This document shows positions 20,216 through 58,000 of a stretch of 64,000 nt of DNA, in pieces. The notes beneath the pieces were generated by a model. That model searched no databases. It worked only from the letters and a program-made list of their open reading frames with translations, and was not told the DNA's origin. How positions within the stretch are numbered: position 1 is the first letter of the stretch; each line of letters begins with the position of its first letter. Source of the DNA: Octopus vulgaris. Lineage: Eukaryota. The DNA lies in NCBI GenBank assembly GCA_951406725.2, contig OX597821.1, positions 48,608,001-48,672,000 of the forward strand, given 5' to 3'. A program made the position numbers and the translations under genes.

Positions 20216-21154
20216 TCAGGTTATCCCATAAGCTATGTCGGATTTTACCTTTTTTAAAATTGAATGAAATTTAATAGTATTTGAGAATGTCTAATGGAAT
20301 TCAAAATTATTTTTATGCATTTGTGTACATTTAAACTAATTAAATATTATCTTACAGAATAATAGAATTAAAATTTCTTTGATTAAAACCCTTTCTATTT
20401 AAGGCACATAATGCTTTATGAGTACAAAAAACGAAACTCTGCAGCCAAAGCGACTCGAAACATACACTCAGTTTATGGGAAAGAATGCTTCAATGAAAAA
20501 AATGGACCTTTTATCGAAATGTTAAATGTCGTAAACAGTGGCTTGATAAAAGGGAAAAAGTTCAATCACAAGGGAACTCAATCCGAGAAGGGAACTTCAT
20601 GGGGAAAAGGTTCTTCTCTCTATCTGGTGGGATTGCAAAGGAGTAATTCACTTTGAATTGTTACCACCTAATGCAACAATCAATGCTCAAGTCTACTGTC
20701 AACAATTAGAGCGTTTGAATGAAGCTTTGAAGAAAAAAAGACCCGCTTTTAAAGTGAATCGAAAAGGAGTGATGTTTCATCAGGACAACGTGCGACCCCA
20801 CACTGCAAAGATCACATTACAGAAGATCGAAGAACTTGGTTGAGAAAAAATTCCTCATCCACCATATCCTCCGACCTTGCTCCTTCAGACTACCATTTGA
20901 TTCGTAGTTTACAGAATCATTTGGGGGGCATAACTTTCGAAAGCCAGGAGGAGGTCGAAAGTGATATTTTAGAGTTCTTCGCTTTGAAACCAAAAGAGTT
21001 TTACATTGATGAGATTAAAAAGCTTGTAAATAGATGGAAGGAAATCATAGATAATCAGGGAAAGTACATTGATGATTAAATTTCAATTCAACATAACGTT
21101 TGACCACTTGTTTTCTTTATTCAAAACTCGGACAGAACTTATGGGATGACCTGA
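20216..21154 (+). mobile_element. Internally deleted mariner element with TIRs and TA target duplication
   Basis: TA|tcaggttatcccataag ... cttatgggatgacctga|TA; FHQDNVRPH and DLAPSDYHL motifs. Confidence 0.92.
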
Positions 21155-25147: not shown

Positions 25148-25690
25148 TATGGGGGGTCAGCTGAAAAGTTCATAGGCCGATTAAGATACTCTCGTGGAAT
25201 GTAACCAAATGAGGTTTAGTTTTCAACACGTGCCCCAATCTTTCATCTTCGTCAGAAAAGACATCAACAGTAGATATGACATCATCATCACTGCGATATT
25301 GGTTCCCAGTCAAGTGTTTTTCAGATGGGGCCAAATCAGAAGAATAGGGAGGCTGATCAACCAGTTCAGTGCCACAGTCGCGCACAGTAGCCATTGAAAG
25401 CAAGTTCTTGTGCGCTGGAGCATTGTCCTCGTGAAACAAGATCCCTTTCGTCAGTTTTCCGAGGTATTTGTTCTTGATAGCTTTTTGTAACTGCCTCAGC
25501 GAGTTGGCACAGTACTCTGCATTGTTGATGTGGTCCTTTTGAAGATAAGCAATAAACACAATGCCTCTTGCATCCCGAAAAATGGAGTTCATCACCTTCC
25601 ACGCAGACGAAACGACCCTTGGCGTTCTTTGAAGCAAGTGACGAGGGATGTTTCCACTGCATGCATTGTCCCTTTGTCTCTGGTTCAAAG
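25148..25690 (-). mobile_element. Mariner transposon 3' half
   Basis: KVMNSIFRDARGIVFIAYLQK, FHEDNAPAH and PPYSSDLAPS motifs; TIR-like tatggggggtcagctgaaaagttc. Confidence 0.88.
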
Positions 25691-25698
25691 TTGCGGCT

Positions 25699-25968
25699 AC
25701 GTTCTGAGTTCAAATTCCGCCGAGGTCGACTTTGCCTTTCATTCTTTCGGGGTCGATAAATAAATTACCAGTTTCGTACTGGGGTCGATGTAATCGACTT
25801 AATCCCTTTGTCTGTCCTTGTTTGTCCCATCTATGTTTAGCCCCTTGTGGGTAATAAAGAAATAGGTATTTCATCTGTCGCTGCATTCTGAGTTCAAATT
25901 CCGCCGAGGTCGACTTTGCCTTTCATCCTTTCGGGGTCGATAAATAAAGTACCAGTTTCGTACTGGGT
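25699..25968 (+). mobile_element. SINE family B, tandem partial copies
   Basis: ttctgagttcaaattccgccgaggtcgactttgcctttcat occurs twice. Confidence 0.85.
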
Positions 25969-26379: not shown

Positions 26380-27800
26380 TTTTGACACATGCTGGAAGGT
26401 CATGTTTTCTCCATTTATGCCTTCAACGCCAAGCCTGGTCATCACTCACCCATAGAAGTCCGACATCTAGATTTCATATCACAGCACACAACAAACATTC
26501 GCCACATCAAGGGTGCAAACAACTCTGTGTGCATGGAATTTAACGCTATCCACACCACTGCTACCATTGATCTCCAGCAGATTGCAGTTGATCAACAAGA
26601 TGAAGAACTGTTACAGCTCCGGAATTCGTCATCTTTGAAATTTCAGTAATCACTGATACCCTCTGCTACAGGCTATATTTGGTGCGACACCTCTACCAGA
26701 CATGAACGTCCGTACATACCGCAGAAGCATAGACATGTCTTTTTCTCTGCTTTGCATTCCCTAGCTGATATCGACCTGTTTCGTGTGGCCCAACATCAAC
26801 AAGGACACTCGTGATTGGGCTAGGATCTGCGTCGCGTACCTAAAAGCAAAGGTCCACCGACACATTTAATCTCCCATTGGTTCATTTGCAACTCCAGATG
26901 CAAGTTTTCAACACGTGCATGTTAACATCGTTGGATCCTTGCCTCCTTTTAACAACTGCACTCACCTGCTCACCTATGTTGACAGATTTTCTCGCTGGCT
27001 GGAAGCTTTTCTCCTATCGAACACTTCCACGGAAACTGTCGCCAAAACGCTAGTGTTTTACTGGGTTTCGTGACGATCACCAGCGAAAGAGGACGTCAGT
27101 TTGATTCTCACCTTTTCACCGAGCTGACTCATCTCCTCGGGTGTAAACACACTCGCACAACATCGTTTAACCCCACAGCAAATGGCATGGTCAAATGCTT
27201 TCACAGCCGACTCAAGGCGGCTATAAAAGCTTATCCAGACTGCTGCAACTGGTTGGAATATCTTCCACTCATCCTCCTTGGTATTCAATCCACGGTTAAG
27301 GAGAGAGTTGGACATACTCCTGCTGAACTGGTTTACGGCACAGCACTCGCCTTACCTGAACAGGTGATCGACCCTGTTTCACCATAAAACTTTCCGGACC
27401 CAGCAAAATATGTCCGCCGCTTACGGACATCTATGTTACATTTGTCCCCTGCAGGCCCCAGACAACAGAACGTTGCTTCACATGTCCGAAAGGACATTAA
27501 TACTTGGACGTATGTTTTCGTTAAAAATGATGGAATACTCTCTCAACTTCGGCCACCATATTCCGGGCCATACAAAGTAATAAAAAAAACAAAGTATTTC
27601 GTTCTCGATTTTGGAGGAAAACGAAATACTGTCTCAGTCGATCGCTTAAGAAAAAGTATTCGCCCTTCCTCAAACGGACTCGACAACTTCAGTTACACCC
27701 ATCGCAAACACCTTACATTCTGCACAACCCCGGCACACCAAATCGGAGAGAACAGTTCGATGGCCCGCAAGATTTGTTCAAGTCTTCCGAGTAAGTACAA
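26380..27800 (+). mobile_element. Gypsy LTR retrotransposon pol remnant (RNase H end, integrase, GPY/F)
   Basis: RHLDFISQHTTNIRHIKGANNSV; ITSERGRQFDSHLF...TTSFNPTANGMVKCFH; LRPPYSGPYKV; multiple stops and frameshifts. Confidence 0.9.
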
Positions 27801-28526
27801 ACTCTTCACCAACCCATCATTTCAATGGAAATGTCCACAATGTCCACATCAACAAATAAAAACAATTTTTTTATGACTATGAACAGTTTACACATACATA
27901 ACCAAAGTGACTCTGCATCACCTACATACAAATCAAAACAAAGCAAAGAAAATTTTGTATAAAAAAACATTTTTCTATATCAGCGAAAAACATTTTTTTT
28001 TTATGAACATTGTTCTGCTAGTTGAACTGACTGAACATTTAACCAACGAACTTTTTGCATAACCATTTTCATTTCTCTGTACATATGTTTTGCTTTGTTT
28101 TGAAAATATTTTGCTCTCTATATCACACCTGTATGCTTACACACACCTGCACAACTCATATTTTCATGTGTGCTATCACTTGCTCTCCGTGCCACTGAAA
28201 GACAACTTACCTCTATTAGACCTTTAATGGGTCATGTAATCAATAGAGTTGCCAATCTCTTTCAACAAACAGCATATTACATTTATGCTTCTGCCTAGGC
28301 ATATACATATTGCCTAACATATTTTGCATACACCAACACTGAACGTTAATTTTTTTGCTCTACATTTTTTTTTTCATTTCTTTCGCTTCATATATTTTTG
28401 ACATGTATTCATTTGTAAATGACACTGTACCCATTTTTCTGCATTACACACAAAATCACACATTTTCAATATCACACGCATCTGTATCGTTCAATCTCTG
28501 AGGCTTCCTCACTAGAAGGTGAGTAG

Positions 28527-30030: not shown

Positions 30031-31452
30031 GGTTCTCTTATACATATAAACATATACATTCATGGTGATTGTTCCATCTTCACAGATGGTTTCTGTCTCC
30101 TTGTCCTTCCTCATTGTCACCCTGTTGCAAATCTGCATGGTTTGAATCAAAGGTGACAGACAGAAGTTGTTATTTACTGTGGTACTTCCAACTGGTTAAG
30201 TCTGCATAGGCCACCACTCTTCTATCACCATAGGACTTTTAGTAGATAAAACGACAAATGAGGTTACCATAAAGAGACATCTGTATGTCATTGGATTGCG
30301 AATGCAAGTACAACTTGAGTACCACTTACTGAGTGTCCATGAGTATTACCTAGTGACAGGCCAAAGTGAGATGACTGGTAAGCATGTGAAACTACAGAAT
30401 TTGTATCAGTGTCCCTCTCCTAGAAAGTTACTGTGACAATGGCAAGGGTTCCCTCATTCATATTGGTTTCATTGTATGCCCTGACACCAACCAAGAGTAT
30501 TATATATGAAGTGACATATATATATAGGTAACAAATGTGGCCTGTGTTTTAATTTGTATTATATTTGCTTTTTCCCGTTTAACAAAGCTTTGCACATACC
30601 CGCTTAATGTACCCTCAATCAATTAGTTGCTTATGTGGAACTTGGGTTTCACCTTCTCACCCTTTCACCCTCGTGCAATTACAGTTTCCAACTTGAGTAG
30701 CTTAATCACTGACAGCTAACAAAATAAAGTAAACCTCTAACCTACCATTACTGGCCTCCTTGAGATTTTATTGTCATTGCCGTAGTGACAACCCTATATC
30801 ATCAGGCATATTTATTTGTATATTTGTTTTAGATAGCAATTACTGAATGATAAAGATGTTAGTTATATGTTTCTAACATACCAGTCACTGGTTCACTGAT
30901 ATTTATGATAGCAATGCTGATAAGGAAATGTTCATACAGTAAAAAATATCTCAAGAAACTCTTTATAAGGCACCTATTATTTTTTTTTTTACCCTTTACT
31001 GATATGCATAAGCAAAAAGGCACAGACATACATGCACAGCATTAAATCGTTTTTTAAGCATTTCATTTTACTTTTGTTAATTTGTTAAAACTCGCCATCG
31101 AGAATAATGACAAGTGTGAGCAAACACTTGTTTCATCTAAATTTAGATTAGTTTTGTTTAAATGAGATACTCACCAACAAAGATAAAGTTTGATTTTATT
31201 TGAAAATCAATTTTTGTAAAAAATGCTTCCAACTCTTTGGAGTCAAACATATTCCTGAGATTAAGAAACAAAACTAAAGTTTTTCATTCTTCCTTTTCTT
31301 CATTAAAGAATAAATGGAAAACAAATTCTTTTTGAAAAAACAAACCCCAAATCATCTTTTTTATCCTGTTTGTCAGAACAAGAATATAGTGATGATATAA
31401 AATGAAAGACCATAAAACAAAACCATTCTGAGTTAGTAAAGTCAATAAGAGG

Positions 31453-31952
31453 TCAAGGTTTTTCTCCCAGACTTAGTCTTCTATTAATATCATCAACTAC
31501 TTTTGGTAAATCTGCAACAGAATCTATAACATAGTGTGCCCCACTGTTACGTAGGATAGTTCGTGAATGTTCCAAACGCTGTTCAAGAGCCTCTTCAGTG
31601 AGTTCTGCCTCTTGTTCAAGACTGTCAATGTTCATATAGTTACTGTATTTGCTCACACCAATACCCCAACAACCAGCCTCAAGTGCTTCAACAACACCTG
31701 AAGCTGTATCATCAACTTTTATCACAGATTCAATAGGATGAATATCTAAAAGATCCATATTACGATAAATCATAAATGGTTTGGGACGGCATCCATTGAT
31801 CACTTCATCGCCAGCCACTGTAACATCTGGTGTGAAACCTTGTTTTGCTACATCTGCCAAAACAACATCCACCATAGAACGTACATAACCAGTCGTACTA
31901 CCAATCTTAATATTGAAGTCTTTCCGAAGTTTTTGCATTGTCTCTGCAGTTC
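31453..31952 (-). CDS. phnX: Phosphonoacetaldehyde hydrolase (phosphonatase, HAD superfamily), last coding exon
   Basis: Acceptor tttctttcttgcacag|GA; encodes KIGSTTGY, GCRPKPFM, IKVDDTASG and GAHYVIDSVADL; ends in TGA; phase 1 matches the upstream donor. Confidence 0.93.
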
Positions 31953-33761
31953 CTGTGCAAGAAAGAAATTACTAATTGATATGGGTTATTATCAACATTA
32001 TTATAATCTTAAACATTATCATAAACATTATCATCTACATCATCAACATAATCTCCATCATTCCAACTATCATCAAGTCACATTATCAACATTATCTCGA
32101 TCATTATAATTATTATTGTTCCCATAACATTTCCACCATCAACACCACCAACAACACCATTTTCAGTATTATAATTACTACCAAAATAATCCTTATCAAT
32201 GTTGCCATTATTTATTTGGATATTATCACAAGAATCTCTACCATTGCCATATTTACTACCAACATCACTATAATTACTATTATTAGTATAATCACCATCA
32301 TTATTGTAATCACCTATAATAATGAGTGTCCGTTGTGCCCACTCTTAATGTCTTACTAAATATTAAAAGAATTAAACTAAAATATTTAGTTTAATTTTAA
32401 TCCTTTCAATAATATTTTCATCTCAAACCTGTTCATGATAAATTTTGTATTCCATACTTCAAGAACAAACAAATACAAATACCAGTTATATCATAAGGTG
32501 ATCTTTGCAATGATTATTGCCATTAATAACTACAACACTCATGTGTGAGATTGTTACACATAAATAGCTAATGAGTAGGCAAATCAACTTCCATGTTGTG
32601 ATATTTTGTAGGATTCAGCAAGGCTGGTTGTTATAAAGACTATGAGATAGCATAAAGCCAAACCTTGACAGAAACATCAGCTTGGATCCCCATAACAAGT
32701 ATGGATACTTGGCAATTTTTCTGACAACTTCTACAACCAAAGTAGACCAGTTATAATACCTGCATTTTCTTCTGTTCTGGTTTTCCCTTGCATCAAGATC
32801 TACTCAGATTCTTCTTTGTTTCCTTCCTATCACTCTTTCTTTTCTCACCATGGAGAAGGTACTCCGCCATTATAGAATAAAAACACGTGCAAGACAACAG
32901 TTACGCACTACAAGTCCTGTCTGAATTGTTATAAAGTAGGTTGCCATATGCTATTTCTATGGGCAAGTTCCAGCCAATGATGTCAAATCTGAAATAGTCT
33001 GGCAGCTGCTTTGGACATAAGGACCCTAAAGTGTTTGAGTTTGACAAATGGACAATAAAATAGTGTACCAAACATTACATGCAAAAATTCAAATAAGTTT
33101 CCAGCTATTTCAGGAAGCTGAAATGTTAGAACAATTATTGTCCAGTGATCTGAAACTAATCAATGACAGACACAAAATAGTTGTTATTGATGCTGAACTT
33201 GCATGAATGTAAGAAGTTATGTATGGGTTCAAAGTTCAGCAAAAGCTATCAAATGACTGAGATTTAGGAATAATTTTTCAGCATCATGGAGACATATAGA
33301 GAGTAATGATGCATGGACAGGTCATGGAAATCTTCATTCTAGAGGCCTGGTTCAAATTGCAACAAATGGAACAATTACCACAAAGAAAGCAGTGGCAATT
33401 AGAATTATTACAGAAAAGTACCTTACCAAATTTAGTTACCATCTTCTACACTCTGAGTTGAAATAAAGCTATGGTGAGCTGCTCTATGTTTCAGTTTTCT
33501 GTGGTCAACAAAATTTAGAGCAGACAAGTACTAGGGATGTCTTAATTAGTACTCTTCCTACAAATTGGTGCTACTGATAGAAATCCTTATTATCACAATG
33601 ATTGAAATCTTAGATTGACTATCTAAATGTATAATAACATTTAGTTGCCTCTTTATATATTCTGAATTCAAATCCTGCTGGAGTCTACTTTGTATTACAT
33701 TCCACAGAGATTCAACCACATACTGAAGTCAATATAATCCACTGAGATGAAATATATTACC

Positions 33762-34063
33762 GTGAAGGCACATGGCCTAGTGGTTAGAGCAGTGGACTCA
33801 CGGTCGAGAGATCGCGGGTTCGAATCTTAGACCAGGCGATGTGTGTGTTTATGAGCGAAAACACCTAAGCTCCACGCGGCTCCGGCAGAAGGTAATGGCA
33901 AACTTCTGCTGACTCTTTCACCACAACTTTCTCTCACTCTTTTCTCCTGCATCTTGCAGCTCACCTGTGATGGACCAGCGTCCCGTTCAGGTGGGGAACC
34001 TATACGCCAAGAAACCAGGAAACTGGCCCTTATGAGCCAGGCATGGCTCGAGAAGGAACAAAC
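33762..34063 (+). mobile_element. Full-length tRNA-derived SINE (family E) with a perfect 12-bp TSD
   Basis: A-box TGGCCTAGTGG, B-box GGTTCGAATC; cctgtgatggaccagcgtcccgttcagg recalls V/Meta-SINE domains; TSD aaatatattacc at 33750-33761 and 34064-34075. Confidence 0.9.
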
Positions 34064-34145
34064 AAATATATTACCATTATTTAATAATAACTACCTTTGA
34101 AATCATTATACCAAATGACCAGAAGCTAACATGGATTAAGGTCAA

Positions 34146-34541
34146 ACTCTTTTACTTGTTTCAGTCATTTGACTGTAGCCATGCTGGAGCACCACCTTTA
34201 GTCAAGCAAATCAACCACAGGACTTATTCTTTGTAAGTCTAGTACTTATTCTATCGGTCTCTTTTGCTGAACCACTAAGTTACGAGGACATAAACACACC
34301 AGTATCGGTTGTCAAGCGATGTTGGGGGGAACAAACACAGACACACAAACATATACACACACATATATACATATATACGAGGGGCTTCTTTCAGTTTCTG
34401 TCTACCAAATCCATTTACAAGGCTTTGGTCAGCCTGAGGCTACGGTAGAAGACACTTGCCCAAGGTACCACACACTGGGACTGAACTCGGAACCATGTGG
34501 TTTGTAAGCAAGCTACTTACCACACAGCCACTGCTATGCCT
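34146..34541 (-). mobile_element. SINE family A copy (intronic)
   Basis: Similar to 4571-4981. Confidence 0.9.
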
Positions 34542-34552
34542 ACGTTTAGTAC

Positions 34553-34699
34553 AGCAGGGTTCACCACCATCCCCCGCCGGAGCTTTGTGGAGCTTTAGGT
34601 GTTTTCACTCAATAAACACTCACAACGCCCGGTCTGGGAATTGAAACCACGATCCTATGACTGTGAGTCCGCTGCCCTAACCACTGGGCCATTGCACCT
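34553..34699 (-). mobile_element. SINE related to family E, 5' part
   Basis: Minus strand tggcccagtggttagggcagcggactcac...aaaacacctaaagctccac resembles the head at 33762. Confidence 0.75.
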
Positions 34700-35061
34700 G
34701 AAAGGTTGCAATCATTTCGCATCACCCTTTCAATTGGATAACCAACAAGACGCCACGTCTTCACTGGCTTCTTAACCTCAAAGGGGGTTTTTTTCAGCTA
34801 AGAGGTTTACAGTCACAGATACATTTAAAAAAGATACTTGCACTGTGAGATGATGTAAATGTTGGTAGTTCTAACATACAACCCAGTCTTTGGGAAGCAG
34901 ACTTAACACAATCACCTGGTCATCGAGAGAGAGACTTAACATCTTGTCTAATACCATCACTTGGTAATTGAGAGGAGTTAATATACCAGCTTGGAGGAGG
35001 TGACAGTTGAGAATCTAAGGTGTCATTCAATGTAAAAGATGAGAGCTTGATCCACACTTAC

Positions 35062-35404
35062 CTGGAAGTAACTGGCTATACTTGGAAAGAACTGAGAGTT
35101 GTAAGGGTACGAAATCATGATACATTTTATCAACATCTGATTGGTCAGGAAATCTTCCATGTACCTCCTTCCATCTTTGTCTGACATCAACATTTTCTGT
35201 TAATGCTTTGATGTGTGCATCCTTCCGTAAACCCATCGGCACTCGAGCCTCAGTCATTGATACAGAGACCCCATGTTTCTTGAAGACATCAACAAATGCA
35301 ACAGCTGGTGCCATTACATAACGGTCAACTGTTGTGCCAGACCAGTCCAGTATAATAGCTTTCACAGCACCAGTGTACTGCCGTATATATCTATAACTGT
35401 TCAT
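35062..35404 (-). CDS. phnX: Phosphonoacetaldehyde hydrolase, first recognisable coding exon (exon begins at 35409)
   Basis: KAIILDWSGTTVD (HAD motif I); EARVPMGLRKDAH (cap-domain Schiff-base Lys loop); acceptor (t)n-cag|aaattATG; donor G|gtaagt. Confidence 0.93.
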
Positions 35405-36112
35405 AATTTCTGAAAAAAAAAAAAAAAAACTACAGAATTAGAATCATGATACCATTTGCACAAATGTGTGAGAGTGAGTATATGTATACATGTATGTATG
35501 TGTGTGTGTGTATGTGTGTGCATGCATGTGTGTTTATATAAATGTGACTACATGTGTATATGTGTGTAAATGTAACTGTGTATATGTATGCATGTGTGTA
35601 AGTATAACTGTGAGTGTATAAATGTGACTATAAATGCATATGCAAGCCCATTATAGATTTTTAGCATTTAATAAACTTTTTATAACAGTACAAGTAACAC
35701 AATATAATTTCTACTTGAAAGGACTAACACACTACCACAAATTCAGATAGGATGGCTAAGGAAGATAAAATTGTTAATTGTGTTACAAGTGTTTTGATAA
35801 GTTATCAAGTGTACTTATGTATAAAAGCAGATACCTCCTATCATGTTTAGCTCTCAGGTGGCACTAAGTTCATTTTCTTTTTATCATTTAGTACAATCAT
35901 CTTATAAAGACAACATATTAATCAGTTGGTAGATATTCTGGAAGAATAACTTGAAGATGAAACTTGCGCATCAGATTCTGACCCCTGAGAGTGACAGCGA
36001 ACTTAATGACAGCGATTTCCTTGTGAGAGGGGGGGGCGGTCAGACAGTAATACTGAAAGTGATGGTGTTGATTATTAATCAGAGACTTGAAATGACTCAT
36101 GGTTCATGAATA

Positions 36113-37814: not shown

Positions 37815-38887
37815 CCCTTTCGTTACTATATTTCTGACCAAATTACACCCCTTATATGTTTCAATTAATTTCTAACGTAATCATAAATTTAGTCTGGTTT
37901 CATTAAACAACTATAACTTGTTTATTTATCGATATATTAATCTGATTTTTGGAAGATAATTTAATGAAATATTCTCAACCAATTCTATACTATAATTTTT
38001 GTCACAAAGTGACTCTAATTGCAGGTAGATACAGGTAAATTCAACAAAATATAAAATTATTAAAATTTTGTTCAAACATCGCTATAGAAAATGGGTTATA
38101 CAATTGGGTATACAACAAAATTTTACTATAGAATTTGTTATTCTGGGTAACTTTCTGATACCCATAATAATATTTATGGCAAAATAGTCTTAATTTCATT
38201 TAAGGTTGTGGGAAACCACAAACTATCGTTTCTTTCGCTTTGTTTACGTTTAGTGTAACGGTTCGTTCCCGCCATAATGATTTCAAATAGGCTCATTTGA
38301 AAAAGTAAAAAGAAATAGTCTAAGGCTTTACTCTTCTGGGAAAGTCTGTGACTTGGTCCAGTTTCTTCAGAAAAATCACCGAAAGAAATAGTTTTTAAAT
38401 GTTCACTCCATTCGGGTGCCAATTCATTTTCTCTATCGCTGTCGATTTCGGATTCACAGTTTTCACTTTCGGAAAAGGAAACATCAGATTCATTATCAAA
38501 TACCACATGCTTTTTTTTTTCAGTCATAGAGTTAGATTTATGAAGGTCTTCAGTAGAAAATCCTTCGAATTCTGACTCGCTGCTTGATATAATGAAATTC
38601 GTATCCATTTTTTGTCAGAATTACAAATTTTGAAAACACAATAGGAACAAATTTCGGAAAAAAATCTCCCAAAATTCACGGAATTAAAATTACACTTCGA
38701 TTATTGTACAAAACTGTAGTTGAACTCTTTACGAAGTATAATACGTGTTTTCACGAATGTACTAAAGAGATTTGCTCTGATATTCTCATTTAAATATGAA
38801 TAGGTAAATTTGGGCTGCTTTGGGCAGTTTGGTCTCATTAACCAAAATTTTTTTCGGGCGGCTTTGGGCGGTTTGGTAACGAAAGGG
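37815..38887 (-). mobile_element. Internally deleted piggyBac element retaining the transposase N-terminus (38174-38608)
   Basis: TTAA|ccctttcgttac ... gtaacgaaaggg|TTAA; acidic N-terminus followed by ALDYFFLLF...TNRY...WFPTTLNEIK. Confidence 0.9.
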
Positions 38888-43679: not shown

Positions 43680-45649
43680 AGCTATGTTAACCTCATGAGG
43701 GGATGGTTACATGCAAGGAAATATTAGTTCAATACCTAGTATTTTGGGGAATGAATTTCCTTAAAATATGTATATCATATCAATGGATATAAAAGTTATA
43801 AAGTTTATATCCATTTAAAAGAAGAAGAGAAAATAGAGAGTAAGAAGTTAATAATTGTTTATTATTAACAAAATGCTCATTTTCGCTTCTTACAGCCGAA
43901 GATGACCAATTTGTAGTAATTAATAATAAACTGTTATCATTAAACTATTAGTAACTTCCTAAATTTCCATTTTCTTCTTTTAAATGGATATAAACTCTGT
44001 GTGTGTGTGTGTGTGTACACACGAACGTACACAACAAGATGCAAAATAAAACACGAAATGTATTAATTCTACACGTGAAAGATGCACATTTATGCAGTAT
44101 ATCAGTATGCATACATATCAAATAAGAATATACATACATTGTAAACAGACAAGTGAAAACATGTGAGTGTATAAACGTTGTTTTTAACCACAAACGGACG
44201 GTGTGTGCAATCGCAATGGCCAGTCTTGTCGCGTTGATTCATTCTGCAGATTATGTGAAGGGAACAAGTGTCTGCGGAATACTCGACGTTTTACTATGAT
44301 TTACAAATGTAAATTCTAGGTTGATGGTGGTGGAGTGGAAACTATCCTTTCGAAGTGCCAGACTTCATAGGAAAGAAAAGTCTCTTCCGTTTTTTCCTTA
44401 TTATTTTTTCCCCTTTTTTCTTTTTACTAATCTTCTGTCTCACGCAACGGAAATTAATTTGATTCTGAAAAGACTTTTTATTTCCCCAAAATTATTTTGC
44501 ATTTTTGTCCTGCTTCCTATCCTTTTCCCTTCGGAAGAACAAAACTTTAAAAATGTTCAGTTGGTTCTACTATTGGTGTAGTTATTATAGAAGTCGACGA
44601 AGGATCTATATATTTACTTATCTCCGCGTTTACACATGCGGTGAGTATTCACACAGCCATCTCCACGATTAAACATGCCGGTGATTATACACAGCAACTT
44701 TTACAATGAATTACAAATGATAATGGCTATATACACAACTACACAACCAACATGAACAGTCCAACAGAGATATGTGTGAATAAAATATGAATGAAAACAT
44801 GAGGACAGTAGTAGCACGTTTTATCAACCCATTCATTGCTGATGTATGAATGAACACATCATAGTAGTAGCAAAGAAAGGCCGGAGTATATTTCTATAAA
44901 TTCCCAATCAATATGTTGGTGGAGAAATGGAATTTGAAATATAATTTTCTCTTGTTGTGTAATAAGTGTAGAAAGCAAAAATGAAAAAGCATTGGTATTT
45001 CTTAGACAATACTTACGCCGGCGATGTAGAGAAATAACGGGAGAAAACAAGGTTTGGTGTAAAGAACAACAATTCCCCCACCTACAACATTGAAGGCAAA
45101 TCTTAGAAGGGCACTCAGCAGGCAGGAAATTGAACAATAGCTATACACACAAGCAAATATAGAGCGAAGAGGGAGTGGGGACGGACACACACACACACAT
45201 CTACACAGACATCTATACCTACTCTGTGTGTGTGTGTATGTATATATGTATGTTTCTATTAAGTTGTCTATAAATAGATAACTATATGCACACACACACA
45301 TACACACACACTTATATAATGCCTCCTTTCAATCTCTACCAACTCCACTCGCAAGGCATTTGTCTGCCTGTCTATAATAGAATATACTTGCCTAAGAAGA
45401 CGCTTCTATATGTATATGCATGTGTAATTATGTTTGTTTGTATATACATACAGAAGGCATTGTTATACATCCATGTACATACATATGCCTGCATGTGTGT
45501 TTGTGTGCGCGCGCTTGTTTACACTCCCCCGGAATCGTCTTTCAACTTGTTGCTGACAAGTTAGTGTTAATAACTTACTGTTCGGAAGACATGTATGTAT
45601 GAAATAAGTTAACCGTTACAGGGAAAAACTTGAAAGAAGCAAAAAGAAA

Positions 45650-47139: not shown

Positions 47140-49030
47140 CACTTTTGCTGATGTGGACGGGTCTTCTCTAGAACCTCATATCACCAAACATCTCAGTCCA
47201 TTGTCATTTCCTCCATGAGCCCCAACATCCTAAGATCACTCCTCACCACTTCATCTCATGACTTCCTGGGTTTCCCTCTTCCACAGGTACCATCCACTTT
47301 CAGTGACAGACACTTCTTAATACAGCTGTCTTCACACATAAACTTGACATGAGTGCTACATTTAATTCTTCTTATTATGCCTAACTTTTCTCTCTACACA
47401 TTTGTGCTTTGTCAGCCATGCACACTGATGCTGCAAATCCAACAGAGCATACAACCTTCATTCCTCTCCAGTTTATGCATGTCCTCTGCAGTCATAGCCC
47501 ATGTCTCACTACCACGTAATATAGTCATTCTCACACAAGCATCATACAATCTGCTTTTCATTCTGAGAGAGAGTCCTCTTGTGGCCAACAGAAGTAGGAG
47601 CTCTCTGATCTTCCTCCATTCTATTATTTTTCTAGAAACAATACTTTCAGAGCATCCACCAGCTTTACTAATTTGGTCACCTAAATAGCAGAAACTATCT
47701 ACTACCTCAAGAGAGCCTTAGTGCTCTTAGTACTTATTGTTCCAGGGCATCTGCCACACATGAAAGTGACCTTATCTGTCATCTATGATTCCATTGCATC
47801 TCTTATGTGTCCATAGGTTACACTTGGTGCAGCAAATTGAATTATGTCCCACTCCTTTCCTACATATTAAGCATATTAAGCAAGCCCATTTACCCGACGG
47901 AAGGAGAGTCTTATCTGCTTTCTTGTTAACAACAACTTTAGTCTTTGCTAAGTTAAATTTAAGGCCCTTTGATTCCAGGTTTTGCTATCAAATCCAGAAC
48001 GTCTCCAATTCTGCTTTAGATTCTGAAATAAGAGCAAGATCATCAGCATATAGTAATTCTCATGGGCATCCAGTTTTGAATTCCTCTGGTATGGACTGGA
48101 GAATGATGATGAATAAGAGTGGACTAAGAACTGATCCTTGGTGAACTCCAATTGTACACTAAATTCATCACTGTATTCAAGGACAACCCTTACCTTACTG
48201 ACAGCATTGCTGTACATATCTTGAACTGCTCTAAGAATTCACTCCTCTACTCCTAGCTTCCCTAGAGACCACTGGATAAGAGAGCAGGGAAGCCTGTTGA
48301 AAGTTTTTTCCAGGTCAACGAAGGCTAAGTACAATGGTTTACTTTTGGCCAGATACTTTTCTTGCAACTGTCTCACTATGAAGATGGCATCAGTGGTACT
48401 TCTCCCTGGAACAAAACCAAACTGCATTTCATCTAGTTTAATTCTATCCCTAATCAGTTGAGATATAACTCTCTCTCTGTAATTTTCATGACCTGCTCCA
48501 GCAGCTTGATACCTCTGTTGTTTCTAAGGTATCACCTTTACCTTTGTAGCAGCTAACTATAATACTACTACAGCAGTCTTTAGGGATGACACCTTCCTGA
48601 ACAACCTGATTAACTATGCAAGTGACTAAGCCTTATCCCACACTGTCTGATCTTTTAATCATCTTGGCAGTGATACTTGATGGTCCAGGGGCTTTCCACG
48701 CCTTCATATTCTCAATTGCCTTATGTGTTATACTATCATCAACTTTAATAGCTGGTCCCTCAATTGGTTCAATATTTGAATGACTCAAATTCTTCCAATC
48801 ATTCTCCACATTTAATAAACTTTCATAATGGTATCTCCATGCATCTTTCTTCGTTGAGTCACTAAACACAAGCATACCATTATCCATTCACACACACTTT
48901 TCACCTACCACATCTCTATTCTCTCTGATACACTGTTTGGCAATCCTGAACACCTCATGGTATAGAACATTGGCAAACTTCTTACCTTCTGCTATTTGTT
49001 TTGCTATGAAAACTTGTTGCCTAGCGTCCC
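47140..49030 (-). mobile_element. Decayed LINE (RTE-like) RT, related to 46170-46695 but in opposite orientation
   Basis: KAPGPS, QFGFVPGRSTTDAIFIVRQLQEKYLAK..PLYLAFVDLEK and YADDL. Confidence 0.9.
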
Positions 49031-53779: not shown

Positions 53780-53849
53780 ACACATGAATATATGTATATA
53801 TACATAAATATAAATCCCGAGGAACTGCTAACATCATTACGCTTTACAA

Positions 53850-54722
53850 AAACAAAGGTGACCGTGGTGATTGTAACAATTACCGTGGAATATCTCTTAT
53901 CAGCAATCTTGGAAAGACCTTTGCTCGCGTTATCCTGTCCAGGCTACAACTGCTTGCTTCCCGAATTTATCCAGAATCGCAGTGTGGCTTTAGAAGAAGC
54001 AGATCAACTATTGATATGATATTCTCCATACGCCAACTTCAAGAGAAGTCCGGAGAGCAGAAAATGCCATTATATACGGCCTTCATTGACCTGACAAAGA
54101 CCTTCGACTTGATAAGTAGAAAAGGCCTCTTCATCCTGTTTCAAAAAATCGGATGTCCACCAAATCTGCTGAGGATCATCAAATCTTTCCATGATGATAT
54201 GCAAGGCACCATACAGCACAATGGTTCAACATCAGCCACCTTCCAAATAAAAAACGGGGTAAAGCAAGGTTGTGTCCTTGCATCTAAATTATTTGGCATC
54301 TTCTCGCTGCTGCTGTTACATGCCTTTGAGACATCAGATAATGGAGTATTTCTGCACAGTAGAAGTGACGGGAAACTGTTCAATCTCTCACGTCTGCGTG
54401 CCAAGAGCAACTGGGAAGCAGTTGCTAGCAACCGTGGAGATTGGCAACGCACCGTAGAAGAGGGAACACAAAGGAGTGACAGAGGGAGAGAAGAGAAATG
54501 GAAAGACAAGAAAAGACGTCAACAAAAAACTATGACATTACAACCAGCCTAGTAAAGTCATCGCTACACTTGCGGCACCTGCCAGAGGGAGTGTTTGTCC
54601 AGGATAGGAATACACAGCCACAGCAGGAGATGTATGAAGACATGAAATGTAAAAACCGGACTAGATTATTTTATGCGCAACCACATTGTCTCCCGAGACA
54701 GAAAGGATGCCAACAACAACAA
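53850..54722 (+). mobile_element. RTE-clade LINE with internal deletion and (CAA)n tail
   Basis: KGDRGDCNNYRGIS, QCGFR, MIFSIRQLQEK..EQKMPLYTAFIDLTK and GVKQGCVLA, jumping to WEAVASNRGDW. Confidence 0.92.
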
Positions 54723-56699: not shown

Positions 56700-58000
56700 T
56701 CTAGCAGTTGCTCCTGCTCCATGACGCTGGGAAAACTGTTGTAACGTACATAGAGACTGATACACACAATAGTGTTAATCTGTCCACTGTTTCATACTCC
56801 AACAATACTGCTTTCATTTCATTGCCATACATTCCAGGGTCTAACTTCACTCTTATTAGCCCTTTCATTATGGCTAGTCTTTTTTCGATTTCTTTGTCTT
56901 TTAGGTAATACATCAGTGCTCTAAAGTTCCTTCCCTTAAGTCTTCCTCCTTTTTACAAGCTTCCAGACGTTCCTCCACCCTTTTTGTCCATCCTTCAATT
57001 TTCTCCTGCATTTGATCTTCAGTTGATCTATCTGTTGCTTATTTCACTTCCCGAGTTCGATTATCTGGTGTCTCGTCAGCAGACTTCTTTTTTCCTTTTT
57101 TTCTTTTTTAGGTTTTTCGGTGGTGATTCCACCCGTGTTCTTTTTCTACCTTCCTTTTTCTCTTCCTCTTTTTCTTCTTTTCTCTCTTTTTCTTTCTCTT
57201 TCTCTAGCTCGTCGTATCTTACCATGTTATCCATGGTCATGAGCTCCTCTTCCGCATTCAATTCTCTCGTCTTCATTTTCTTTCTCTATCTCCGCTCTGA
57301 CATCTCTCATGAAGTCCTCCATGGTCATCTCTTCTACCTGTATTTCTCTTAGAGGACATATTGCCTTCATGTGCTCTCTGCTTTTACACTTATAACATAC
57401 TGGAGGTCTGCCTCCCACCATGACTCTCAGTCGGGTCTCATCGGGGAACACCAACTCCTCTGAGATGTTGTGCAAATCTGGCAGGGTTATGTGTATTAGT
57501 GCTTCTACTGCATAACCCCACCGGTTAATATCGTTAGACTTCTCCACCTTGAGGATATCTACCTCTTCCTTACAATTATATATAATTGCTGCTACCAGTC
57601 TTTCTATGTCTATTTCCGGTGGTACTTTACTAATTCGAACTCTCACCGCTCGCCTACCACAGTATGTAGGTAGGAGTACCCACCTAGTTGTTCTTAATGC
57701 TGTTGTTGCATGTCTTCTTGCTTCTTCGTTTTCGAAGCGTACTTCAACTGTGGCGTACTTTCTCCCTCTAGTGTAGAAGGTAGTTCTATCTTTAATCTCT
57801 TCTAGACACTGTTCTATCTCCTCTATTTCTGCCACTTCAATTCTTTTTGTGGCTACATTCCACGTTCTATATGTTATTTTGAACTGCATGTATCGGCGGT
57901 CTGATTCTTAGACAGTCTCCTTCTTTTTTAAAGCTGTCAAAATATTTCTTAAGACTTTCTTTTTCAATTCTCACTTCCTTCAACTGCAACGCATCGGCAG
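56700..58000 (-). mobile_element. LINE ORF1 (gag-like, L1/Tx1-type) remnant
   Basis: VRISKVPPEID...RVMVGGRPPVCYKCKSREHMKAICP CCHC zinc knuckle followed by a charged tail; frameshifted. Confidence 0.75.

Follow-up and report, generated by a model that had tools for sequence, protein, structure and literature searches.

Can an octopus break the carbon-phosphorus (C-P) bond of the phosphonates that it makes and eats, and where did it obtain the gene for doing so? The question is raised by a minus-strand gene in a 64,000-nucleotide (nt) stretch of the Octopus vulgaris genome (assembly GCA_951406725.2, contig OX597821.1, positions 48,608,001 to 48,672,000), referred to here as the window, within which all positions are counted. 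The predicted product is a phosphonoacetaldehyde hydrolase (phosphonatase, PhnX), an enzyme of C-P bond cleavage, which is usually treated as microbial. We conclude that the gene is an intact, spliced, single-copy member of the PhnX family. Judging from its sequence and its modeled structure, the protein probably splits phosphonoacetaldehyde into acetaldehyde and phosphate, in which case the phosphorus of 2-aminoethylphosphonate (AEP), whether the octopus makes this compound or eats it, would become available to the animal again.

The family assignment is based on a profile match, conserved catalytic residues, and a fold match, and on all three counts it upholds the preliminary description of this locus, which had recognized PhnX from sequence motifs. 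The PhnX equivalog model TIGR01422 (EC 3.11.1.1) scores 301.9 bits against a curated cut-off of 220, over model positions 1-251 (calculated on the identical record P0124). The next best family, the PhnX-like hydrolases of TIGR03351, stays far below its cut-off (75.6 versus 218.9 bits), as does the inactivated PA2803/PcrP family NF053741 (38 versus 240 bits). Generic HAD families score less than 32 bits. The preliminary description had allowed that automated annotations of similar invertebrate genes might exist. The translated product is identical over 280/280 residues to GenBank record CAI9726784.1 ("phosphonoacetaldehyde hydrolase-like [Octopus vulgaris]"), and its orthologues are named in RefSeq from O. 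sinensis (XP_029640286.1, 279/280 identical) and O. bimaculoides (XP_052826159.1, 264/280 identical). These records represent the same gene, and their names are database annotations.

Alignment with Bacillus cereus PhnX chains 2iof and 2ioh, which include a K53R mutant, places octopus Asp20, Met57, Gly58, Lys61, and His64 at Asp12, Met49, Gly50, Lys53, and His56, and Thr135, Arg170, and Asp196 at Thr126, Arg160, and Asp186. The equivalents of Asp12, Met49, Gly50, Lys53, His56, Thr126, Gly127, Arg160, and Asp186 are kept in 15/15 named animal proteins; Met49 and Gly50 belong to the cap loop, and Thr126, Arg160, and Asp186 to the core phosphonate and Mg2+ ligands. Asp12, Lys53, His56, Cys22, Thr126, Gly185, and Asp190 are named as active-site residues in PMC11203657. 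Relative to B. cereus, the octopus protein carries Ala14Ser, Cys22Val, and G185D/D190G, the last a variant of the motif-IV acidic pair. The G185D/D190G pair occurs in a purified, active Achromobacter PhnX (PMC11203657). When introduced into the B. cereus enzyme, the double change gives a kcat of 1.7/s versus 15/s for the wild type, and C22S gives 2.26/s, about 7-fold lower (PMC11203657). Thus, the octopus enzyme may be a slower one.

The fold agrees. A model built with AlphaFold from a 100-row alignment (predicted local distance difference test [pLDDT] score, 97.0), which replaced a discarded single-sequence fold (pLDDT, 35.9), has a HAD core with a helical cap that matches solved PhnX structures. 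In a Foldseek search with this model, the top 8 PDB matches were all PhnX (E values of 4e-27 to 1e-21; TM scores of 0.75 to 0.95), whereas the ninth reached only 4.5e-12. The B. cereus structures (1fez, 1rql, 2iof, and 2ioh) match with TM scores of 0.75 to 0.86 and share the catalytic Asp12/Lys53/His56/Arg160/Asp186 equivalents; the Oleispira PhnX-like protein 3iru matches with 0.95. In contrast, sequence identity to B. cereus PhnX and to 3iru is 36-39%, and the octopus protein belongs to a distinct subfamily and is encoded by a spliced stand-alone gene without an operon.

The gene is laid out as follows.

45017..45080, minus strand: likely upstream exon of the 5' untranslated region (UTR), with a GT donor at 45016; homologous to the extended N terminus of isoform X1 in O. 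bimaculoides.
35404-35062, minus strand: coding exon 1 (343 nt, ATG at 35404, phase 1; exon span 35062..35409), residues 1-114.
35061-31953, minus strand: intron (3,109 nt, GT..AG, phase 1, pyrimidine-rich acceptor), skipped exactly in contigs of three of four sequencing runs.
31952-31453, minus strand: coding exon 2 (500 nt including TGA), residues 115-280, with Thr135, Arg170, and Asp195/Asp196.
30973..31452, minus strand: 3' UTR, a minimum extent taken from the spliced contig of run X10; the X1 contig extends beyond 30700.

The two exons, the phase-matched GT-AG intron, and the open 280-residue protein of the preliminary description are borne out by the joined frame, in which the only stop is terminal. 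All five motifs quoted there (the nucleophile motif, the cap loop, GSTTGY, RPKP, and KVDDT) were located in the translation, at residues 20, 56, 132, 170, and 193. Exon 1 supplies the motif I nucleophile Asp20 and the cap loop residues Met57, Gly58, Lys61, and His64. Scanned apart, the exons cover TIGR01422 positions 1-101 (E value, 4e-35) and 104-251 (6e-48), contiguous across the intron and far beyond chance; when each exon was searched on its own against Pfam, no family was returned at E<=0.001. The predicted junction, 35062/31952, is present as an exact 3,109-nt skip in contigs of runs X1, X7, and X10, which come from three studies and two coded organisms, among the 4 of 24 listed runs that were compared over 30700-35470; the status of these runs as RNA was guessed by software, and none is on record as RNA. 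Very high-copy repeats occupy the intron at about 33740-34700.

Exon 1 is itself preceded by a splice acceptor at 35409 (poly-T and CAG; boundary 35410/35409), which means that another exon, probably of the 5' UTR, lies farther upstream. The candidate at 45017..45080, which lies upstream of the region covered by the read comparison and was identified by sequence homology, has no open frame back to an ATG in the O. vulgaris window. Upstream coding exons corresponding to the N termini of O. sinensis isoforms X1/X2 were sought in the window, and no convincing donor was found. Downstream of the stop codon, AATAAA signals occur at 31200, 30816, and 30772. GC content is host-like (0.40 in the coding sequence and 0.28 at third codon positions, with 0.36 in the window). 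Together with the spliceosomal intron, the spliced contigs, and the intact orthologues, this rules out a contaminant or a pseudogene. A profile search of the genome contigs found PhnX in single copy. The only other match, at C20:19324129-19324428 (L003), was rejected as a second copy; it scores 33.6 bits on TIGR01422 and is the exon of a distant HAD hydrolase.

What would such an enzyme do in an octopus? By analogy with the B. cereus mechanism, Lys61 would form a Schiff base with the aldehyde, Asp20 would attack the phosphorus, and Mg2+ would be held by Asp20 and the Asp195/Asp196 loop (PhnX mechanism summarized in PMC3266647 and PMC10574752). We envisage that AEP freed by turnover of ceramide-AEP (CAEP) would be transaminated by an AEP transaminase and then cleaved by PhnX. 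No phnW-like partner had been visible in the window, and a genome-wide check found one elsewhere: phnX is on contig C8, and an unlinked, intronless AEP transaminase gene of 418 amino acids is on C11 (G000:C11:55296356-55297432, L004; 457.9 bits versus a cut-off of 400.8). PhnA has no match in the O. vulgaris genome. The genome also holds matches to genes for AEP synthesis, namely five ordered exon matches to phosphoenolpyruvate (PEP) mutase on C16 and two to phosphonopyruvate decarboxylase (C11:55497749-55513347; L010 and L011). On C11, some 200 kb separate the AEP transaminase gene from the decarboxylase exons; the two enzymes act one after the other in AEP synthesis. The statement that molluscs contain AEP lipids holds for this very species, as the muscle of O. 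vulgaris contains 29 CAEP and 6 N-methyl-CAEP species (PMC12335516). Given the synthesis genes, the transaminase, PhnX, and CAEP, the animal can plausibly both make and break AEP.

Because phosphonoacetaldehyde is also an intermediate of AEP biosynthesis, some separation of the two directions is needed. The first 43 residues of the transaminase include 5 basic and 0 acidic residues and resemble a mitochondrial presequence, whereas PhnX starts only 13 residues before the family model and has no presequence. From composition alone, PhnX is predicted to be cytosolic and the transaminase of mitochondrial type; this view of targeting covers these two proteins, as the mutase and decarboxylase loci were fetched without their N-terminal exons. 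Such an arrangement could spare the shared aldehyde during AEP synthesis.

That the substrate has stayed the same is supported by the neighborhoods of the nearest bacterial relatives (57-66% identical to the octopus protein). In 13/15 loci from GTDB genomes, phnW lies in the flanks, and the other 2 adjoin phosphonate ATP-binding cassette (ABC) transporter genes (two of the loci come from one metagenome-assembled genome [MAG], and the phnW query was that of locus L012). These phnW-phnX genes, from uncultured Kiloniellales, Rhodospirillales, Rhodobiaceae, and Gammaproteobacteria MAGs (L012-L026), belong to the same subfamily and have the same active-site variants. They reside in operons with phnW, phnA, pbfA, and transporter genes, in contrast to the octopus, where the transaminase is on a separate contig. 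In one alphaproteobacterial MAG, phnX has an in-frame stop and sits beside an intact phnW (L016:5001-5831).

Several observations weigh against a working recycling enzyme. Cys22, counted among 12 active-center residues (PMC11203657), is Val in the octopus, and Ala14 is Ser. The mutase and the decarboxylase are seen only as exon matches below whole-protein cut-offs. A mitochondrial transaminase combined with a cytosolic PhnX would require phosphonoacetaldehyde to cross a membrane. The splice junction is absent from the contigs of the fourth run, X15 (about 76% of the run read), which has an unspliced 3.5-kb contig across the acceptor, from 30700 to 33789; moreover, assembled contigs carry no expression level, and the RNA label of the runs is a guess. 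Finally, our literature searches, which had open-access coverage with most subscription journals outside it, found no enzyme assay of an animal PhnX and no functional study of the octopus protein.

A different purpose for the same chemistry is conceivable, and we regard it as unlikely: PhnX might serve mainly in overflow or damage control, removing leaked phosphonoacetaldehyde or tuning AEP supply, rather than in phosphorus salvage. The genome carries AEP synthesis genes whose intermediate is the PhnX substrate, the transaminase but not PhnX has a presequence-like N terminus, and a carnivore is presumably seldom short of phosphate, all of which would suit this role. However, the nearest bacterial relatives belong to uptake-and-degrade clusters with phnW, phnA, pbfA, and ABC transporters. 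That the protein has instead become a general HAD phosphatase acting on some other substrate, as the changes at Ala14, Cys22, Gly185, and Asp190 might suggest, is scarcely credible, as all four substitutions are common to 8/8 named near bacterial proteins, the near bacterial clade lies beside phnW in those 13/15 loci, generic HAD scores are low, and the Schiff-base Lys persists together with its His. We retain phosphorus recycling through phosphonoacetaldehyde cleavage as the preferred function.

The existence of such genes in animals and the catabolic idea are already known. Transcripts for AEP transaminase and PhnX in bdelloid rotifers were described in 2012 as foreign and catabolic (PMC3499245), anthozoan PhnX appears in a 2016 table of horizontal gene transfers with a dinoflagellate source (PMC4878875), and the hemocyte proteome of the snail Biomphalaria includes both PhnX and AEP transaminase (PMC6281880). 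Genes for AEP synthesis have been described in corals (PMC3640398). According to a 2026 preprint, nearly every coral genome surveyed encodes PhnX and PhnW, which are expressed, and corals are proposed to degrade AEP; its tree legend mentions "the other Metazoa" (bioRxiv 10.64898/2026.05.06.723128), and the tree may already include mollusc sequences. The rotifer, coral, and Biomphalaria proteins thus share the octopus annotation, and AEP degradation by the animal itself was proposed earlier for rotifers and corals. The suggestion in the preliminary description that the animal turns over its own phosphonates is therefore plausible, with a partner transaminase in the genome and CAEP in the tissue, but it is not new. 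The coral copies, compared by description only, are reported to be dinoflagellate-related and apart from the other Metazoa. Within the open-access literature, we found no paper on an octopus phosphonatase and nothing relevant on phosphonatase in molluscs or phnX in giant viruses.

The octopus gene is far from isolated. Homologue searches returned the best 120 of 1,937-3,777 matches each, and the named orthologues among the matches listed span four mollusc classes and the brachiopod Lingula: gastropods (Haliotis, Patella, Lottia, Batillaria, and Bradybaena), bivalves (Mercenaria, Mactra, Dreissena, Sinanodonta, Argopecten, and Pecten), cephalopods, and one chiton, with intact orthologues in three Octopus species. 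The closest bacteria among those matches are uncultured MAGs, mostly marine proteobacteria. An atlas search gave four bacterial-majority PhnX clusters and is unsuited for taxonomy. About 22 near-identical full-length proteins from Logan/ENA/JGI sets (the P0094-P0171 group, e.g., P0105 and P0158) are nested among bivalves, and one protein of the P0158 group is encoded on a 110-kb contig, which hints that a common bivalve has an intronless copy. In one gene call (P0003), the start coincides with the octopus intron position, and two on long contigs (P0049 and P0092) read through it. There are weak hints, then, that the intron is limited to cephalopods.

For the origin of the gene, we built an IQ-TREE phylogeny of 67 rows chosen from a 146-row set, leaving out redundant rows and several long branches and taking 10 outgroup rows as canonical PhnX on identity. 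A 57-row subfamily that includes the octopus is split from the outgroup at 100/99. Within it, 20 bacterial rows form one clade (100/99), the cephalopod-type rows another (95/80), and the other 13 animal rows a third (95/75). The remaining rows comprise a EukProt protein with two relatives, rows from giant-virus contexts, a Rhodoferax cluster, and others without a label. The backbone of the 49-row core is poorly resolved in the best tree, and that of an earlier FastTree with one long outgroup was uninformative. In approximately unbiased (AU) tests, none of three constraints was rejected: near bacteria with canonical bacteria as a clade (P = 0.176), monophyly of all 17 animal rows (P = 0.164), and cephalopods with near bacteria as a clade (P = 0.293). 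No rooted tree that we built nests animal rows inside the bacterial clade.

Since orthologues occur across four mollusc classes and a brachiopod and the octopus is not nested in bacteria, a recent or octopus-specific transfer is not favored. It is likely that the gene dates back to the common ancestor of molluscs, and probably to the one that they share with brachiopods. Of the two origins offered in the preliminary description, an ancient retained gene or a domesticated transfer, the data thus support an old gene and disfavor a recent acquisition by the octopus; the AU tests fit either ancient direction.

The first of the two ancient scenarios, to which we assign close to an even chance, holds that PhnX of this type is an old, vertically inherited eukaryotic gene from which giant viruses and one marine bacterial clade later took copies. 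In its favor, the 20 near bacterial rows form a single well-supported clade inside a subfamily that also has animal, EukProt, and giant-virus-context branches. This clade is shallow even though it takes in alpha- and gammaproteobacteria, an actinobacterial MAG, and a planctomycete MAG. The AU test did not reject animal monophyly. On the other side, it did not reject the grouping of near bacteria beside canonical bacterial PhnX either, the core backbone is weakly resolved, several deep rows are long branches, and the Rhodoferax cluster also falls in the subfamily. That cluster (P0193; Rhodoferax/Burkholderiales, 58 members; L070 and L075) diverges separately from the marine clade, on a long branch of its own, and a second exchange is a possible explanation for it.

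Contexts that suggest giant viruses recur in the subfamily. A PhnX gene lies beside genes for a nucleocytoplasmic large DNA virus (NCLDV) major capsid protein and a poly(A) polymerase (L039:4998-10535); another, in AT-rich DNA (L062:975-1838), is beside adenosine deaminase and Got1 genes; a third AT-rich locus (L069) has the deaminase only; and P0195 is an octopus-subfamily PhnX in a Yasminevirus record. Scans of viral contigs with P0124 and P0060 confirmed no relative, so the viral support comes from metagenome loci and this one named record. An AT-rich metagenome contig (GC, 0.30) carries a class-V aminotransferase (37% identical to PhnW), one unknown open reading frame (ORF), and PhnX in a row (L029:2118-4975). 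With PARG, BTB, and RING genes around them, it looks like a giant-virus contig that encodes both AEP-degrading enzymes.

The second scenario, for which we see just under a one-in-two prospect, reverses the direction: marine proteobacteria would long ago have passed the gene to an early eukaryote or to the lophotrochozoan stem, with an intron gained afterward. The near bacteria (57-66%) are as close to the octopus as are other molluscs (62-67%), the bacteria-first topology is not rejected, and the separate dinoflagellate-related PhnX reported in corals points to repeated acquisition. Against this stands the failure of every rooted tree to place animal rows inside the bacterial clade. A cephalopod-specific bacterial transfer, or a contaminant or nonfunctional relic, is very improbable: in the best tree, the cephalopod rows do stand apart from the 13 rows of other animals, and their union with bacteria is not rejected by the AU test, but the features that exclude contamination, with intact orthologues in three Octopus species and across molluscs, oppose it, and rapid evolution in cephalopods is a more parsimonious account than an additional, independent transfer.

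Elsewhere in the window, ORFs resembling transposon relics lie at 53788-54552, 47412-47717, 25170-25709, 20753-21079, 26983-27876, 38174-38614, and 57227-57907. By motif, we take them to be reverse transcriptase, mariner-type and piggyBac-type transposase, integrase, and long interspersed nuclear element (LINE) ORF1.

The phosphonoglycans of Helisoma eggs are consumed during embryo development. They make up 95% of the phosphorus compounds in those eggs (PMC6429109). In the words of a 2023 review, phosphonates are "even more cryptic in eukaryotes" (PMC10574752). If the octopus enzyme is active, major phosphonate producers would also recycle phosphonates, with a small soluble protein that lends itself to easy assay. 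The remaining interest lies in a first biochemical test, in what keeps cleavage and AEP synthesis from forming a futile cycle, and in the direction of transfer among eukaryotes, giant viruses, and marine bacteria. Tentatively, from sequence comparisons, we put forward the bolder possibility that molluscs run a complete compartmentalized phosphonate cycle, with synthesis by a mitochondrial transaminase and cytosolic C-P cleavage, and that an old eukaryotic PhnX subfamily was passed to giant viruses and widespread marine bacteria. If this is true, part of the bacterial AEP degradation in the ocean would run on an enzyme derived from eukaryotes, the reverse of the usual assumption.

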